In this document: piece by piece, positions 1,267-6,739 of the stretch
How positions within the stretch are numbered: the first letter of the stretch is position 1
Layout: every line of letters starts with the position of its first letter
Assembly (NCBI GenBank): GCA_965372735.1
Contig: CBDVDL010000001.1
Coordinates: 1-28,063 of the forward strand
Direction: 5' to 3'
DNA length: 28,063 bases
DNA from: an uncultured Alphaproteobacteria bacterium
GTDB lineage: Bacteria; Electryoneota; RPQS01; DYHQ01
The notes under the pieces: model-generated
Database searches by the model: none
What the model was told of the DNA's origin: nothing
What the model saw: the letters and a program-made list of their open reading frames with translations, nothing else
Translations under genes and position numbers: made by a program

Positions 1267-2055
1267 CTAGTGAGGAAAAAACGAGGCGAATTCAAATGAG
1301 TGAGAGTTGTCCAGTACAAGCTTTGGGTCCATATGTTTTAGAAGCTCGTATTTCTTCACCAAAGGCTTGAATTTATCTCTGCCGAGACCACTTAGACAAT
1401 TATAAAATAATAAAAGCAATTCATAAGTTGAAAGTTGAGCGCGAACAAGGTTTACATAGAACTTCTTGTTATCAATGTCACTTCGGTCGACAAACTTTAC
1501 AATATTGTACAGAGTTCTGAAATAATGTCCGAGTACAGAATGATACACATTGTAAAATGCAAAGTATAATTCGTTCATAGGTATCGAGTCCTTTTGAGTT
1601 AAATCCTGAACCTTCATTTGATATTCTTCTTTAAATTCGTCGTACATTAACCTAAAGCAAATTCTTCCCGAGATACCACTTTCACCTATGTCAATGGATG
1701 TAGCATTCTCGTTGTGGAATCTCAGCATTTGAAAAAAAGTCGCTTCAAATTGCTGAAGTTTGAATGTTTCATTCTGCATTCGTAGCTGTTCTTTCTGCCC
1801 TCTAAGTTCTTCTCTGGTTTGCTCGAGCTCTCTCTGCTGAACATCAAGGTCTTTTCTTTGAAGAAGAATGGCGATTATAATACCCGCAAAGGCAAGTCCT
1901 GAAAAGAGTGCATTTAACGCTTCAGACACATGGCCAGAATGTTCGCCCTTCACCCACTGCAACAGACAGAAATCACCAGTCTGGAGATAAATACTCGCAG
2001 TCCATAGAACAATCACGGCAATGAATATCAATGGAATAAGCCATTTGCCCTTCAT
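1267..2055 (-). CDS. Putative phage abortive infection protein (putAbiC-like) with N-terminal membrane segments
   Basis: GGAGG SD then ATG at 2055; two hydrophobic segments, coiled coil (QQRELEQTREEL), then QQFEATFFQML, LGHYFRTLYNIVKFVD and RAQLSTYELLLLFYNCL motifs typical of this family. Confidence 0.75.
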   Translation of the reverse strand: MKGKWLIPLIFIAVIVLWTASIYLQTGDFCLLQWVKGEHSGHVSEALNALFSGLAFAGIIIAILLQRKDLDVQQRELEQTREELRGQKEQLRMQNETFKLQQFEATFFQMLRFHNENATSIDIGESGISGRICFRLMYDEFKEEYQMKVQDLTQKDSIPMNELYFAFYNVYHSVLGHYFRTLYNIVKFVDRSDIDNKKFYVNLVRAQLSTYELLLLFYNCLSGLGRDKFKPLVKKYELLKHMDPKLVLDNSHSFEFASFFPH

Positions 2056-3542
2056 TGTTTCCTCCCTAATGATGACAGGTTGTTTTGCCAGATAGCTGAA
2101 AGAACACATCCAAACTCCCTTAACCGCGCGTCCATTATCTTATCAAGCTCGCGTTGGATGGTGGGGTCGAGGGGTTGGGATTCGTGTTTCTTTAATGTTT
2201 TTTCGACGAAATCGTGGGCGCGTTCGAGGGCGGTTTTAGCGCCGTGACGTTCGGAAGCTTCGTCAGTCATACGGTCAACGATTTTGCTGGGGTAATAGCC
2301 TTCCTTTTTGTACCACTTCAGCGTATGCGGATGGTCAAGAAGATTGCCTTTCTGAATAAGCACTTCCATCAGTTCGGGAATGCTCGCTCCTTCACGAGGT
2401 TCGATACCGCGAGTCAATCGCAGCGCGGAGCCGCAGATATCGTGATCAATCGCGAGCTTTTCGAGCGACTGCGCGTTTTCGAAATTCATCATCCCCGCGC
2501 CGGAAATCATGTTCACTCCCGCGAGCGCCGCCATCACTGCTCCCATGCCGCTCTCGAAACCCGCCTGCGCGTCCACGACCTTCGCATCGGAAAGGCTCAT
2601 GTACGCATGTGTCGGCACGTTGAAATGTTTGCCGACTTGCGCGTACGCCGCGTCAATCATCATCGTCTCAATCGCGCCCATCGGCGTCGTGGCGGTGCGC
2701 ATATCGAAAAACGCCGGCGAACCGCCATAGATAATCGGCGCGCCGGGCGCGGCGAGCTGATGAATCACGATGCCGCTTAAATCCTCGGCGCAATGCTGCA
2801 CGACCGCTCCATGCAGCGACACCGGCGAGGTCGCGCCTGTCAACGGCATCGAAACCAACTCCGCCGGAATGCCCGCACGAGCGCAGTCGATTAAATCCTG
2901 ACACGTCAAATCGCTCCACATCAGCGGCGGTGACGGGCAACAATCGAATTGCGCCAGTGGTTTTTCACGCAGCGCTTTCTCGCTCCCACGCACGACAACC
3001 AGCATCCGGCGCATCACATCGAACGAACCGCGTATGAACGTACCGGTCACCACAGGTTTCGTGCCATTCGTCAGCGCGATATACAAGCGGATGCTGTCCG
3101 AAACTTCCGGAGGCACATCGCCCGGCACGACGCCCGTGGATTGCGCGGCGAAATTCGGCAGCGCATCAATCAGGCGCGCGAAACGAACGGCGTCTTCAAT
3201 GCGCGCACTTCGAAGTTTGCCGCTGTCGTAATCGTAAAATTTCAACGCCGCCGAACCGGGGTCGAAATGGCAACGATCCTCTCCTAAATCCGCTTGTAAT
3301 TTTCCTTCGCGGTCATAGAGCTGAATCGAAGAAGGAACGGTTTTCAAACATCTTTCGATGAGGGCTGAATTTATTTTAACTCTGCCCGCTTCCAGCTTCG
3401 CTCCGGCATCAAGGAGAAGCTGCTTTGCTTCAGCATTCTCGACCTTCACGCCCGAGCGTTCCAAAATTGTATAAGCGTCTTCGATAATCGCCTGTACCAA
3501 TTCCGGCGAAAGAAGTTTTATTTTAGGTCGAATAACGGACAT
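2052..3542 (-). CDS. Trimethylamine methyltransferase (MttB) superfamily protein, non-pyrrolysine
   Basis: GGAGG SD before ATG 3542; CCPSPPL, GATSPVSLHG, DMRTATTPMGAIE, SDAKVVDAQAGFESGM, GVNMISGAG motifs. No in-frame TAG; Ser codon at 2550-2552 aligns by eye with the Pyl position. Confidence 0.9.
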   Translation of the reverse strand: MSVIRPKIKLLSPELVQAIIEDAYTILERSGVKVENAEAKQLLLDAGAKLEAGRVKINSALIERCLKTVPSSIQLYDREGKLQADLGEDRCHFDPGSAALKFYDYDSGKLRSARIEDAVRFARLIDALPNFAAQSTGVVPGDVPPEVSDSIRLYIALTNGTKPVVTGTFIRGSFDVMRRMLVVVRGSEKALREKPLAQFDCCPSPPLMWSDLTCQDLIDCARAGIPAELVSMPLTGATSPVSLHGAVVQHCAEDLSGIVIHQLAAPGAPIIYGGSPAFFDMRTATTPMGAIETMMIDAAYAQVGKHFNVPTHAYMSLSDAKVVDAQAGFESGMGAVMAALAGVNMISGAGMMNFENAQSLEKLAIDHDICGSALRLTRGIEPREGASIPELMEVLIQKGNLLDHPHTLKWYKKEGYYPSKIVDRMTDEASERHGAKTALERAHDFVEKTLKKHESQPLDPTIQRELDKIMDARLREFGCVLSAIWQNNLSSLGRKQ

Positions 3543-3546
3543 GCGA

Positions 3547-4185
3547 TTACCTCCGAAAAGAGCAGTCTTGTTTTTCACAAAGATTACACCTTGAAGCTTG
3601 CGGTTCCCCCGGAGGAGATGCCGTCAGCTTCACGGCGAACGAAATAGATTTTAAGGGATTCATCAGAAAAGTCGGACTCAATTTAACACCGACCCTTTCG
3701 GCGAACAGATGAGAAAAAATGATTTTCTGACCTGATTTCAATGCCCAGTTTCCGTAGCCCGGACTGAAACGCGGCCATGCAGCGAGTCCCTCTTCCGCCG
3801 CTTTCTCGCAGATACGCGCATCGACGGCATTCGCGAGACTTTCTACGGTTTCCGAACCGACCGCATCGAGCGCGGTCGCGAGCGCGAACTGTCCTTTGTC
3901 TGAAAGCTCGCGCACCTTCTCTTCTAAGCTCGAGCCGATGGTGCAAATACTGAGAACGATTGGACCGAGGTCGTTTTTTAACGCTGCCTCTTCAAAATCA
4001 CTATCGAAAATTCCATAGACGGCACGCGGCTTTGAAAGATTGTGCCCCATAAGCAGCGCTTCGTCCACCATGTCACGCAATCTTTCCGGAGCGTCTTCTT
4101 CCCGCCCTCCAAGCAGGCGGTAGATTTCTCCGATGCGAGGCACCACCGAAAGATCATCCATATAAAAAATTGATGCTGCTGTCAT
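3547..4185 (-). CDS. B12-dependent methionine synthase reactivation-domain-like protein
   Basis: LDAVGSETVE, RFSPGYGNW, LMNPLKSISF motifs; C-terminal CNLCEKQDC; start overlaps the upstream stop (ATGA, 4185-4182). Confidence 0.8.
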   Translation of the reverse strand: MTAASIFYMDDLSVVPRIGEIYRLLGGREEDAPERLRDMVDEALLMGHNLSKPRAVYGIFDSDFEEAALKNDLGPIVLSICTIGSSLEEKVRELSDKGQFALATALDAVGSETVESLANAVDARICEKAAEEGLAAWPRFSPGYGNWALKSGQKIIFSHLFAERVGVKLSPTFLMNPLKSISFAVKLTASPPGEPQASRCNLCEKQDCSFRR

Positions 4186-5051
4186 TTCCATCGCTTCCGA
4201 ATTAATGCAATCGTCTCTGGATTCGTTCCACAGCAACCGCCAATGATTTCCACACCGAGTTCTCGGATTTTTATGATGTTCGCTACATATATCTCGTTAT
4301 CTTCAGGGTAAACTGTGCCCTGTGGTGTGACCTGAGGCATACCGGCATTCGCCTGAATGATGACAGGAATAGAAACAGCTTCGCGGGCTTCTTTTGCGAC
4401 GTCTATCATGTCCGCGCTGCCCAGCGAACAGTTCGCACCAACCGCTGCCGCACCAGCATTCGCCATCGCCTTTATCGCATTCTCGACCTTGTCACCGAAA
4501 AGCGAGAAATATCCTTTCTTGCGTTTCTCGAATGTCATGCTGAGCATAAATGGCTTTTCGGATACGGAGCGAAACGCGCTGGCTACTAATAGAATTTCCT
4601 GAAGGTCGAAGAAGGTTTCCGCGATGAAGAAATCAACACCTTCCTCGTCCAAGATGCGCGCCTGAGATGCGAAAGCGTGTTCGATGTCATCAGGTTTGCC
4701 CGGCCCCACCGGTTCGAGCAGAAGCCCTGAAGGGCCGATTTCCCCTGCGACAAGCGCTCGCTTCGAAGCAGCTTCTTTCGCGAGTCGAACACCTTTTCTC
4801 GTCAACTCTTCCCAAGATTGTTTGATTTTATGCTCGCCAAAGCGCACCGGATTCGAGTTAAAGGTGTTCGTAGTGATGACATCCGAACCGGCTTCGACAT
4901 AAGCGGCATGCAATTCCCTGACGGCATCAGGATTCTCCGTATTCCAAATATCGGGAGGCTGCCCCGGCGCAAGTCCTTTGCGCTGCAACTCAGAACCGAT
5001 AGCGCCATCGAAAAGAAGGCCTCGGGATTTGATGCGCTCAATCAAATTCAT
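4182..5051 (-). CDS. Homocysteine S-methyltransferase domain protein
   Basis: LLFDGAIGS, AGSDVITTNTF, ETFFDL, GANCS and GGCCG Zn-binding motifs; ATG 5051 overlaps the upstream stop (ATGA). Confidence 0.9.
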   Translation of the reverse strand: MNLIERIKSRGLLFDGAIGSELQRKGLAPGQPPDIWNTENPDAVRELHAAYVEAGSDVITTNTFNSNPVRFGEHKIKQSWEELTRKGVRLAKEAASKRALVAGEIGPSGLLLEPVGPGKPDDIEHAFASQARILDEEGVDFFIAETFFDLQEILLVASAFRSVSEKPFMLSMTFEKRKKGYFSLFGDKVENAIKAMANAGAAAVGANCSLGSADMIDVAKEAREAVSIPVIIQANAGMPQVTPQGTVYPEDNEIYVANIIKIRELGVEIIGGCCGTNPETIALIRKRWK

Positions 5052-5701
5052 TGACGTGTTTCCACAAGTTCGCGCGCCATACGGACCGCTTCGATAGCAT
5101 TCTCGCCGTAGCCGTCCGCGCCGATGTCTTCCGCCCATTTGCGACTGACCGGCGCGCCGCCAACCATCACTTTCACACGGGCCCGAAGTCCTCTCTGCGC
5201 GAGCATTTCGATGACGGTTTTTTGACCCATCATCGTCGTCGTCAGCAGAGCCGAAAGGCAAATCAGGTTCGCGTTAAAATCTGCGGCTTCGCTGCAGAAT
5301 TTTTCCAGCGGAACATCCGCGCCTAAATCGCGCACTTCAAAACCGGACGCTTCCAACATCGCGGCGACGAGAGATTTGCCGATGTCATGGATGTCTCCCT
5401 GAATCGTCCCGATAACCACGCGCCCGAATGAAGAACTCCCGGATTGCCCCGCCGCCATTTCCGGTGTCAAAATCGCCATGATCGCTTTCATGGTTTCGGC
5501 GGACAGCATCAGCTCCGGCAGAAAAATATCGCCTTCCTCCCAGAGGTCTCCCAGACGCCGCATCGCGGGAATGCACGCTTGGTTGACAAGGTCGATGGCG
5601 GAAATACCATCAGAAAGTCCCTGCCGGACGCATTCCAAAGCGCGCTCCTTTTCGGCAGCCTGAACGGCTTCATTTAATTGTGTAAAAATGTCGTTTTTCA
5701 C
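5048..5701 (-). CDS. Corrinoid (B12-binding) protein, MttC/MtbC-like
   Basis: Cap domain (FLPELMLSAE), DIHDIG (DxHxxG), SALLTTT and VMVGGAP motifs; GTG start with GGAG SD. Confidence 0.92.
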   Translation of the reverse strand: MKNDIFTQLNEAVQAAEKERALECVRQGLSDGISAIDLVNQACIPAMRRLGDLWEEGDIFLPELMLSAETMKAIMAILTPEMAAGQSGSSSFGRVVIGTIQGDIHDIGKSLVAAMLEASGFEVRDLGADVPLEKFCSEAADFNANLICLSALLTTTMMGQKTVIEMLAQRGLRARVKVMVGGAPVSRKWAEDIGADGYGENAIEAVRMARELVETRQ

Positions 5702-5820
5702 AGGTTTCTCCGTATGAAATTTTCGCTCTAAGTCTGTTTAAAATAAGAAAAAGGGCGAAGAGAGTCAAGGGATTCAACCGCGTCCGCCTGCGGAATTACA
5801 GCCTGTCCGACAGAGTGGAC

Positions 5821-5848
5821 TTGACTTTGACAATTCAGATGTTATAAT
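5821..5848 (+). promoter_or_regulatory. Sigma70-type promoter for the peroxiredoxin operon
   Basis: TTGACT (5821-5826), 16-nt spacer, extended -10 TG-T-TATAAT (5840-5848). Confidence 0.6.
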
Positions 5849-6022
5849 TAAAGATTAGCAAAAATGCAAGTTTGTTAAATCTATCTTCATAAAAGACATC
5901 TTGTTAAACAGATTCGCGGGGCAGCAAGTTCAGGCTGAACGGACAGCGCACTTGGAAATTATAGCTAAAGAAACCGCCTGTTTCTAACTCGCAGAGTTCA
6001 ATATATTCAAGTGGGGCAACTT

Positions 6023-6739
6023 ATGGCGAAGCCAAAAGACGGGTGCGTCCAGTCAGCGGCGGGGCCCATCAACGCGCCCATTCCAGATTCAGCCGAAACA
6101 GCCGAAGTGTCCAGTATGACGGGAGGAAACATAATGACTGCTCAAGTTGGTAAACCTGCGCCTGATTTTGAAGCGAGCGCGTATTTCGAAGGCGGCTTTA
6201 AAAATGTAAAGTTGTCGGATTATCATGGTCAATGGGTGGTGCTTTGCTTCTACCCGGGCGACTTCACATTCGTTTGACCGACAGAGTTGGCGGCAGTTGC
6301 TGCCAAGCACGATGAATTGAAAGCACTGGGTGTTCAAGTACTGGCTGCAAGCACTGACAGCCGCTTTACCCATAAAATCTGGCAAGAGGAAGAGCTGTCG
6401 AAGATGGTTCCCGGCGGCGTTCCTTTCCCCATGTTGTCGGACGCCGGAGGTAAAATCGGCACGGTTTACGGCATTTATGACAGCGAGGCGGGTGTGGATA
6501 TTCGCGGCCGATTTATCATTGATCCCGAAGGTGTTATTCGGGCAATGGAAGTACTCACTCCCGAAGTAGGCCGCAATGTGAGCGAACTGATTCGTCAGGT
6601 GAAAGCTTTCCAGCATGTCGTCGCTACAGGCGAAGTGACACCATCCGGATGGTTGCCCGGTAAACCCACGCTGACACCCGGACCCGAGTTAGCCGGCAAA
6701 GTATGGAAAGAATGGAAAACGGGGATGGCATTTAATTAG
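6023..6739 (+). CDS. prxU: Selenocysteine-containing peroxiredoxin (AhpC/TSA family)
   Basis: Two in-frame ORF pieces join across TGA 6275-6277 to give [13 protein letters not shown], with TGA at the peroxidatic Cys. N-terminal GC-containing extension; alternative start ATG 6134 with GGAGG SD. Confidence 0.9.
6287..6306 (+). promoter_or_regulatory. Bacterial SECIS-like hairpin
   Basis: TTGGCGGC/GCTGCCAA stem with G-containing loop AGTT; the loop begins 17 nt after the TGA. Confidence 0.7.

Follow-up and report, generated by a model that had tools for sequence, protein, structure and literature searches.

A four-gene cobalamin operon from an uncultured Electryoneota bacterium that probably makes methionine from a methyl donor other than folate

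The window considered here, that is, the whole stretch of DNA that was analysed (28,063 nucleotides; GenBank assembly GCA_965372735.1, contig CBDVDL010000001.1, positions 1 to 28,063 of the forward strand), comes from an uncultured bacterium that GTDB places in Electryoneota, and it carries an operon of four intact, co-directional genes on the minus strand at 2052-5701, inside 3.65 kb. The operon encodes a corrinoid (cobalamin) carrier, a homocysteine S-methyltransferase module, a reactivation protein of the methionine synthase (MetH) type and a methyltransferase of the MttB superfamily. These proteins probably form a three-component cobalamin methyl-transfer chain accompanied by a repair factor, which would make methionine from a methylated donor other than folate. 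When considered from the point of view of its parts, the four-gene cassette appears to be a chimera, with a donor half that resembles the methylamine methyltransferases and an acceptor and repair half that resembles the split MetH of Thermotoga. The features of the operon are the following, with positions given in the window:

5702-6022, minus strand: leader and promoter region, non-coding and AT-rich, from a reading of the sequence
5048-5701, minus strand: corrinoid (cobalamin) carrier, MttC/MtgC-like, with cap and Rossmann B12 domains, 217 amino acids (PF02607, PF02310, TIGR02370)
4182-5051, minus strand: stand-alone zinc homocysteine S-methyltransferase (thiol-activating) module, 289 amino acids (PF02574)
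3547-4185, minus strand: TM0269-type MetH activation protein (S-adenosylmethionine-binding, reactivation), 212 amino acids (match to PDB 1j6r, Foldseek)
2052-3542, minus strand: non-pyrrolysine MttB-superfamily methyltransferase, 496 amino acids, presumed substrate:corrinoid methyltransferase (MT1) (PF06253)
2592-2594, minus strand: CTT codon (Leu329) where MttB has the pyrrolysine codon UAG (alignments to 7xcl and 2qne)

Read directly from the sequence, an ATGA overlap joins the stop codon of the corrinoid gene to the ATG of the homocysteine module (5051-5048), and a second one joins the stop codon of that module to the ATG of the activation protein (4185-4182), for which an alternative ATG lies at 4191. 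The mttB gene starts at an ATG at 3542, after a spacer of 4 nt and with a GGAGG Shine-Dalgarno sequence 8 nt ahead, and the corrinoid gene starts at a GTG at 5701 that is preceded by GGAG. The four genes are translationally coupled, and the initial annotation, which was made from the sequence alone and described them as tightly coupled, holds good in this respect as well as in all four of its domain identities. Upstream of the operon, the ordinary list of open reading frames contains plus-strand fragments at 6011-6277 and 6287-6739.

The corrinoid protein matches PF02607 (76.8 bits) and PF02310 (104.7 bits) and scores 224.1 bits, against a cut-off of 215.3, with TIGR02370, the model for the cognate corrinoid proteins of methyltransferases. 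Its closest solved relative is MttC (7xcn_M, E 1.2e-50), the match to the B12 domain of MetH (1bmt) being far weaker (E 1.4e-27), and 32 cassette homologues all share its DxHxxG, SxL and GG motifs without variation. The homocysteine module, in turn, matches PF02574 over its full length (222.2 bits, profile positions 1-282 of 283) and has the homocysteine domain of Thermotoga maritima MetH as its closest solved relative (1q7m, E 2.3e-47). Its zinc ligands, Cys208 together with Cys273-Cys274 (NC...GGCCG), align with the cysteines of the T. maritima enzyme and are likewise invariant in 32 cassette homologues. When these two proteins were co-folded, with one alignment per partner as input, they reached a score of 0.61 against 0.02 for the best control; for comparison, 58 of 80 solved complexes reached this mark, as did 2 of 110 mismatched pairs. 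At least 72% of the contacts are common to the runs, the predicted local distance difference test (pLDDT) value of the partner is at least 78, and the confident contacts include the conserved W-EEG-x-FLPE loop of the corrinoid cap, in which FLPE is invariant. The co-fold supports binding between the homocysteine module and the corrinoid protein, though it may simply mirror their likeness to solved MetH structures.

The activation protein matches TM0269 of T. maritima (PDB 1j6r) with a phmmer E-value of 1.4e-10 and misses the Pfam cut-off of PF02965 (17.5 bits against 25, with 45 residues matched). Its AlphaFold2 model, built with 35 homologues, has a pLDDT of 91.4 and is matched by Foldseek to 1j6r (E 3.6e-13; template modelling scores 0.76/0.81; root-mean-square deviation 2.5 Å), as well as to the reactivation domains of the Thermus, Escherichia coli and human MetH proteins (E 5e-9 to 2e-5). 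All 35 homologues share the P, G, Y and W of an R-x-SPGYG-x-W motif, the Arg of which is found in at least 90% of them; we take this motif to correspond to the RxxxGY motif with which MetH binds S-adenosylmethionine (AdoMet). Modelled in this way, the protein appears to have the fold of the MetH activation domain together with its AdoMet motif, and it is predicted to bind AdoMet. Its C-terminus (3547-3610, minus strand) carries in addition the motif CxxCxxxxC-xx-R, the Cys triad of which is at least 90% conserved in the 35 cassette homologues. This triad falls in a tail that is modelled with low confidence, and it is not accounted for by any solved relative; it may constitute a metal or iron-sulphur site for electron input. 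The triad is missing in two variants of the activation protein that have no homocysteine module adjacent to them (loci L101 and L106).

The identity of the acceptor deserves consideration at this point, as members of PF02574 also methylate selenocysteine or selenohomocysteine, and the methylamine systems of methanogens terminate on the thiol coenzyme M. The PF02574 protein could then be a general methylcorrinoid:thiol methyltransferase that serves another thiol or a selenol in catabolic or detoxifying demethylation. Such an acceptor is very unlikely: the nearest solved or curated relatives of the module, that is, 1q7m and the NF006396, betaine-homocysteine methyltransferase (BHMT) and MetH models, are all homocysteine users, the zinc triad and the motifs surrounding it are invariant, the cassette includes a reactivation protein of the MetH type that would use AdoMet, and there is no route for regenerating a bulk acceptor. 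Homocysteine is retained as the acceptor in what follows.

Turning to the donor half, the MttB-family protein scores 283.9 bits with PF06253 (cut-off 25; profile positions 29-499 of 500) and 362.8 bits with TIGR02369, the equivalog model of the pyrrolysine type, which places it below the cut-off of 525. Its comparison with characterised enzymes consists of pairwise scores against solved structures and of a published residue map. The scores against MttB (7xcl, 199.6 bits) and MtgB (2qne, 194.8 bits) are nearly equal, that against the Sinorhizobium meliloti protein (4yyc) is 119.5 bits, and the highest is obtained with the pyrrolysine-type model, though below its cut-off. The mttB reading frame contains no internal stop and no in-frame UAG. 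When residues are numbered along the 508-residue frame that begins at GTG 3578, the alignments to 7xcl and 2qne both place Leu329 under the pyrrolysine, between Ser328 and Ser330; of the 121 clade members, 112 have Leu and 9 have Met at this position, and MtgB likewise has Leu there. The serine that the initial annotation had assigned to the pyrrolysine position therefore has to be replaced by this leucine (CTT, 2594-2592), since serines only flank it. Within mttB there is also a match to PYLIS_3 of Rfam (2495-2594, minus strand; 38.8 bits against a gathering score of 38), which recurs at three related loci. It was rejected as a pyrrolysine signal, as the match starts at the CTT codon that lies under the UAG of the model, and it is read instead as conserved coding sequence shared with mttB genes of the pyrrolysine type.

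The residues of the presumed substrate pocket are more informative with respect to the donor. Mutagenesis, together with the structure of a ligand complex, has identified Y97, R312, H348 and F356 as the residues with which MtgB holds glycine betaine (Picking et al. 2026, PMC13080624). R312 recurs in every characterised member, and the substrates of these enzymes are without exception acidic quaternary amines (PMC13080624; also PMC12155760). Mapped through the 2qne alignment, with an offset of 16 that was checked on R312, H348 and F356, these four residues correspond to S109, H324, S359 and E367 of the protein in the window, with F366 adjacent to the last, so that none of the four is kept. Among the 121 clade members, S109, S359 and F366 are present in all, E367 in 119, and position 324 is His in 111 and Gln in 10. 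Judged from these alignments, the clade appears to keep a pocket that is different from that of the betaine enzymes and strictly conserved. Because all four substrate residues of MtgB are replaced, including the common Arg, glycine betaine is unlikely as the donor, as are the other known acidic donors, and the pocket gives no indication of the donor suggested earlier, a quaternary amine of the glycine betaine kind.

Since the clade has swapped all four betaine-binding residues for a different and strictly conserved pocket (S109, H324, Y326, L329, S359, F366 and E367), it is conceivable that its class of donor is new to the superfamily, being either a non-acidic methylammonium compound or trimethylamine used without pyrrolysine. 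In this extended form of the proposal, lineages such as that of the window would have no other B12-dependent methyltransferase and would use this one to supply methionine with methyl groups independently of folate in anoxic sediments, and the Cys triad of the activation protein may hold a metal or iron-sulphur site. The extended form is tentative, and we consider it somewhat doubtful as a whole.

The same pocket, with conserved acidic and aromatic residues in place of the betaine motif, has also to be weighed against a recruitment of the barrel for another purpose. MttB-type and pterin modules are both TIM barrels, and an MttB-like barrel recruited for methyl-tetrahydrofolate or another methyl-pterin would turn the cassette into a folate-dependent MetH with a non-homologous folate module. 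The family has an MTHFR, fused to a homocysteine methyltransferase domain, that could supply methyl-tetrahydrofolate, and in family f1, which is without MetH, the cassette might stand beside MetE as its B12-dependent counterpart. However, all characterised members of the MttB superfamily demethylate methylamines or quaternary amines (PMC13080624, PMC12155760), and a folate-dependent cassette would be redundant beside the full pterin-containing MetH of many lineages, as well as beside the pterin module that accompanies it in loci L053 and L072. A recruitment of this kind is unlikely, and a donor of the methylamine type remains the preferred reading.

The pterin (methyl-tetrahydrofolate) module that is required for MetH (TIGR02082), be it fused or split, was not found here. 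The operon has no pterin-binding domain, as had been stated in the initial annotation, and the search for a separate pterin-binding methyltransferase that it had proposed led only to FolP (dihydropteroate synthase), which lies amid folE and other housekeeping genes. This genome, 87.6% complete and in 390 contigs, yields no second match to PF00809. Neither an MtrH-type module nor RamA (PF14574) was detected, both having been sought in this genome alone. The five relatives from the same family, one of which is 96% complete in 20 contigs, have no PF00809 match beyond FolP-like ones, and in two further cassette-bearing genomes, labelled Zixibacteria, the PF00809 match is again FolP-like only. Across the six family genomes, the sole corrinoid protein of the methyltransferase type is that of the operon itself. 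These results bear on the possibility that the operon is an ordinary split MetH, in which the methyl-tetrahydrofolate module is located elsewhere or escapes recognition and MttB is an auxiliary second donor, following the MtgBCDE model of Ruegeria pomeroyi. In that model a single corrinoid protein does serve the MttB-family donor as well as the pterin and homocysteine modules (PMC12478193), and loci L053 and L072 have the order corrinoid protein, MttB, pterin module and homocysteine module. With FolP alone in this genome and its five relatives, no MtrH-type module in this genome, the FolP-like match in both Zixibacteria-labelled genomes and a common cassette (43 of 65 loci) that never has a pterin gene, an ordinary split MetH is nevertheless improbable.

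Other methionine synthases of the group help to place the non-folate chain proposed here. Cassette-bearing genomes of the same phylum encode MetH: in G018 (family f5) it is short and has its own TM0269-like gene, in G009 and G032 it is full-length, and other f5 genomes contain MetH-sized frames of ~800 residues. Because the cassette coexists with a pterin-containing MetH, its function would be distinct from that of MetH, most simply through the use of another donor. In all six genomes of the family of the window, a split MetE, made up of an N-domain-like and a catalytic-domain gene, is located directly upstream of the homocysteine-methyltransferase/MTHFR fusion (own genome, contig C226, L007 2119-3700; G049:C4:102834-105707). 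For the two PF01717 genes, core-MetE was rejected in favour of split MetE, as one of them is matched by the profiles of both the N- and the C-domain and the other gives a strong match to the catalytic domain. Split MetE has been reported mainly from archaea, plus one bacterium (Price et al. 2021, PMC7857596). A B12-independent, methyl-tetrahydrofolate-dependent route to methionine is probably present in the family.

The cassette is conserved well beyond this family. The closest homologues (94% and 79% identity) occupy the same four-gene operon, and the order corrinoid protein, homocysteine module, activation protein and MttB recurs between unrelated flanks in several metagenome-assembled genomes (MAGs), one of which is unlabelled while the others carry the labels Deltaproteobacteria, Acidobacteriota or Bacteroidales. 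When a collection with a single genome for each species was scanned, at least 581 stretches proved to encode the clade, of which the best 80 loci were examined and the 65 with at least 2.3 kb of upstream sequence were assessed for the cassette. The full cassette is present in the same order in 43 of these 65 loci, from many phyla; three others miss only a detectable corrinoid gene, and two consist of the corrinoid protein, MttB, a pterin-binding module and the homocysteine module. As regards the phylum of the window, 18 of 79 species genomes have one MttB gene each, and the corrinoid and homocysteine genes are adjacent in 12 of the 16 MttB loci fetched, in an order that varies by family. Since the linkage persists through rearrangement and changed neighbourhood, it provides good evidence that the cassette is a functional unit. 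This conservation is also relevant to the idea that the methylated corrinoid protein, or MttB, mainly serves a different acceptor, for instance HgcA in mercury methylation: MttB is the sole corrinoid methyltransferase in some mercury-methylating MAGs, including deep-sea Zixibacteria, and an interaction between HgcA and MttB has been proposed by docking (PMC12484752). With docking as the sole basis of the published proposal and a cassette linkage that is conserved across phyla, a main role of this sort is most improbable, and the linked homocysteine module is kept as the destination of the methyl group.

Some variants and neighbours of the cassette merit separate mention. The cluster of L053 (5232-9188; Gemmatimonadota chromosome CP070758.1) and that of L072 encode a corrinoid protein, an MttB-clade protein, a pterin module (PF00809, 63 bits) and a homocysteine module, and thereby unite all four functions of the MtgBCDE type in one operon with the same MttB clade. 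In 16 of the 80 loci, mostly labelled Krumholzibacteriota, a co-directional trio follows downstream of the cassette (L027 7482-10000; L065 7453-10047), consisting of an isochorismatase-family cysteine hydrolase, a thioredoxin-reductase-like flavoprotein and an RlmN/Cfr-like radical SAM protein; the trio names no substrate, and its flavoprotein is a candidate electron source for reactivation. A relative in the family of the window (L030) has flavoprotein and radical SAM genes divergently upstream of its cassette. Directly downstream of mttB in the window lies a putAbiC-like gene (1267-2055, minus strand; PF16872, 96 bits) in AT-rich sequence of 32-47% G+C, whose ATG overlaps the mttB stop (ATGA, 2055-2052) and is preceded by AGGGAGG inside mttB. 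The same spot is occupied by a putAbiC gene in the 79% identical relative, and by a protein with a type IX secretion system (T9SS) tail in the 94% identical one.

Upon the established domains, cofactor and metal motifs, gene coupling and conservation, a reaction sequence can be laid out in which all of the chemistry is inferred, as are the donor and the direction in which the methyl group moves. In the first step, the MttB-clade enzyme would strip a methyl group from the methylated donor, most likely an N-methyl ammonium compound other than glycine betaine, and load it onto the MttC-like corrinoid protein in its Co(I) state. Methionine would then arise as the zinc homocysteine module hands the methyl group of methyl-Co(III) over to homocysteine, and the TM0269-like protein would rescue corrinoid that has been oxidised to Co(II), via reductive methylation with AdoMet. 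The net result would be a disassembled MetH in which the folate module has been swapped for a donor module of the methylamine type, and which would act as a B12-dependent functional analogue of BHMT.

Several observations weigh against this scheme or limit its reach. Among the cassette loci examined, no conserved transporter, kinase or other neighbouring gene points to the donor, the only syntenic neighbours of the cassette in family f5 being Fpg and one gene of unassigned function. The Rfam search revealed no riboswitch and no other methionine- or B12-responsive leader: for the operon leader of the window and of eight related loci, no family reached its gathering score and nothing riboswitch-like appeared at E-values up to 5. 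As to expression, no RNA run was listed for the sequence, and the single strong match is a DNA run from marine sediment, which may be the sample of origin. Orphan MttB genes account for 12 of the 65 clade loci, and the C-terminal ~17 residues of the MttB protein in the window (3' end, 2052-2105) differ from those of the 94-79% identical relatives. The absences described above would be weak if taken from this 87.6%-complete genome alone, and are strengthened by the five relatives. Finally, the split MetE and the fusion offer another plausible methionine synthase, and the cassette is not needed to account for methionine prototrophy; their presence weakens the necessity of the cassette as a methionine synthase and leaves the claim about its chemistry as it was. 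What survives of the original proposal of a B12-dependent quaternary-amine:homocysteine methyltransferase is the modular architecture without a folate module and its conservation across phyla, whereas a donor such as glycine betaine is not indicated, methionine has a further route beside the cassette, and the idea had been published before.

Should the scheme be true, many uncultured bacteria of sediments and groundwater would take the methyl group of methionine, and hence that of AdoMet, from an environmental methylated compound via B12, bypassing folate. Methylated amines would gain a further sink, in competition with methylotrophic methanogens; the known demand for cobalamin would widen, and the scheme would assign a first non-catabolic function to a large uncharacterised part of the MttB superfamily. 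As the cassette is small, self-contained and soluble, the question of the donor is open to direct work in vitro.

When compared with known systems, each half of the cassette has its own closest counterpart. On the donor side, MttB and MttC of Methanosarcina barkeri (7XCL, 7XCN) are the best solved relatives of the MttB-like protein (199.6 bits) and of the corrinoid protein (E 1.2e-50), and the motif S-x-SDAKV-D-QAG-E near the pyrrolysine site is common to M. barkeri MttB and the cassette protein. However, M. barkeri MttB contains pyrrolysine and delivers to coenzyme M via MtbA, whereas the cassette protein has Leu329 and lies below the TIGR02369 cut-off. The MtgB/MtgC/MtgA system of Desulfitobacterium hafniense (2QNE, 9YCE; PMC13080624) also combines a non-pyrrolysine TIM barrel, with Leu at the pyrrolysine position, and a small corrinoid partner; its acceptor is tetrahydrofolate via the pterin-binding MtgA, and its substrate residues Y97, R312, H348 and F356 are not found in the cassette MttB. 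On the acceptor and repair side, the split MetH of T. maritima (TM0268 and TM0269; 1Q7M, 1J6R) comes closest to the cassette in its homocysteine module and in having a separate activation protein of ~210 residues. In contrast, TM0268 carries its pterin and B12 domains in one chain, while in the cassette the B12 protein is separate and the pterin domain absent, and the cassette activation protein has its extra C-terminal Cys triad, for which the 1j6r chain is too short, as judged from the alignment ends. BHMT (1LT7) resembles the cassette in passing a methyl group from a non-folate donor to homocysteine with a PF02574 zinc domain, but it does without cobalamin and, as a single enzyme, binds its betaine directly, whereas the cassette would use a separate donor enzyme of the MttB type and transfer the methyl group over cobalamin.

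At the level of the complete system, a first point of reference is MtgBCDE of Ruegeria pomeroyi, Phaeobacter inhibens and S. meliloti (Mausz et al. 2025, PMC12478193). Genetic work in Ruegeria has demonstrated that the same corrinoid protein is used there by the MttB-family donor and by a split MetH, and that the pterin module and RamA are needed (PMC12478193). Like the cassette, MtgBCDE has a donor enzyme of the MttB family, MtgB, and a homocysteine module that stands alone, MtgE, with MtgC as the corrinoid protein that they share, and it ties demethylation to methionine synthesis, as the cassette would. Its own features are the essential pterin module MtgD, reactivation through RamA/DUF1638, a CmuA-like MtgC, occurrence in aerobes, glycine betaine as the donor and genes that are often dispersed; the cassette, for its part, has no pterin module, no RamA and no glycine betaine motif, and its corrinoid protein is MttC-like and its reactivation of the TM0269 type.

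The most direct precedent is the same four-gene cluster described from Candidatus Electryoneota and "diverse bacteria", for which corrinoid-dependent methionine synthesis from an unknown donor was proposed (Williams et al. 2022, Environ Microbiol 24:2576, PMC9324843). The likeness, drawn from components and description, extends to the same four components and the same hypothesis, so that both the cluster and the idea of its function were published in 2022 and the copy in the window is one more clean example. The MttB clade of that study was placed apart from MtgB and MttB, and nearer MttB (PMC9324843), which agrees with the scores and with the PYLIS_3 coding-sequence likeness found here. Its Electryoneota MAGs with the cluster also encode full MetH (PMC9324843), whereas the family considered here has none and has instead the split MetE and the homocysteine-methyltransferase/MTHFR fusion. 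As far as the sequences indicate, what this copy adds is a lineage in which the cassette appears to be the only B12-dependent methyltransferase and has no pterin module beside it, together with residue evidence that argues against the known betaine donors.

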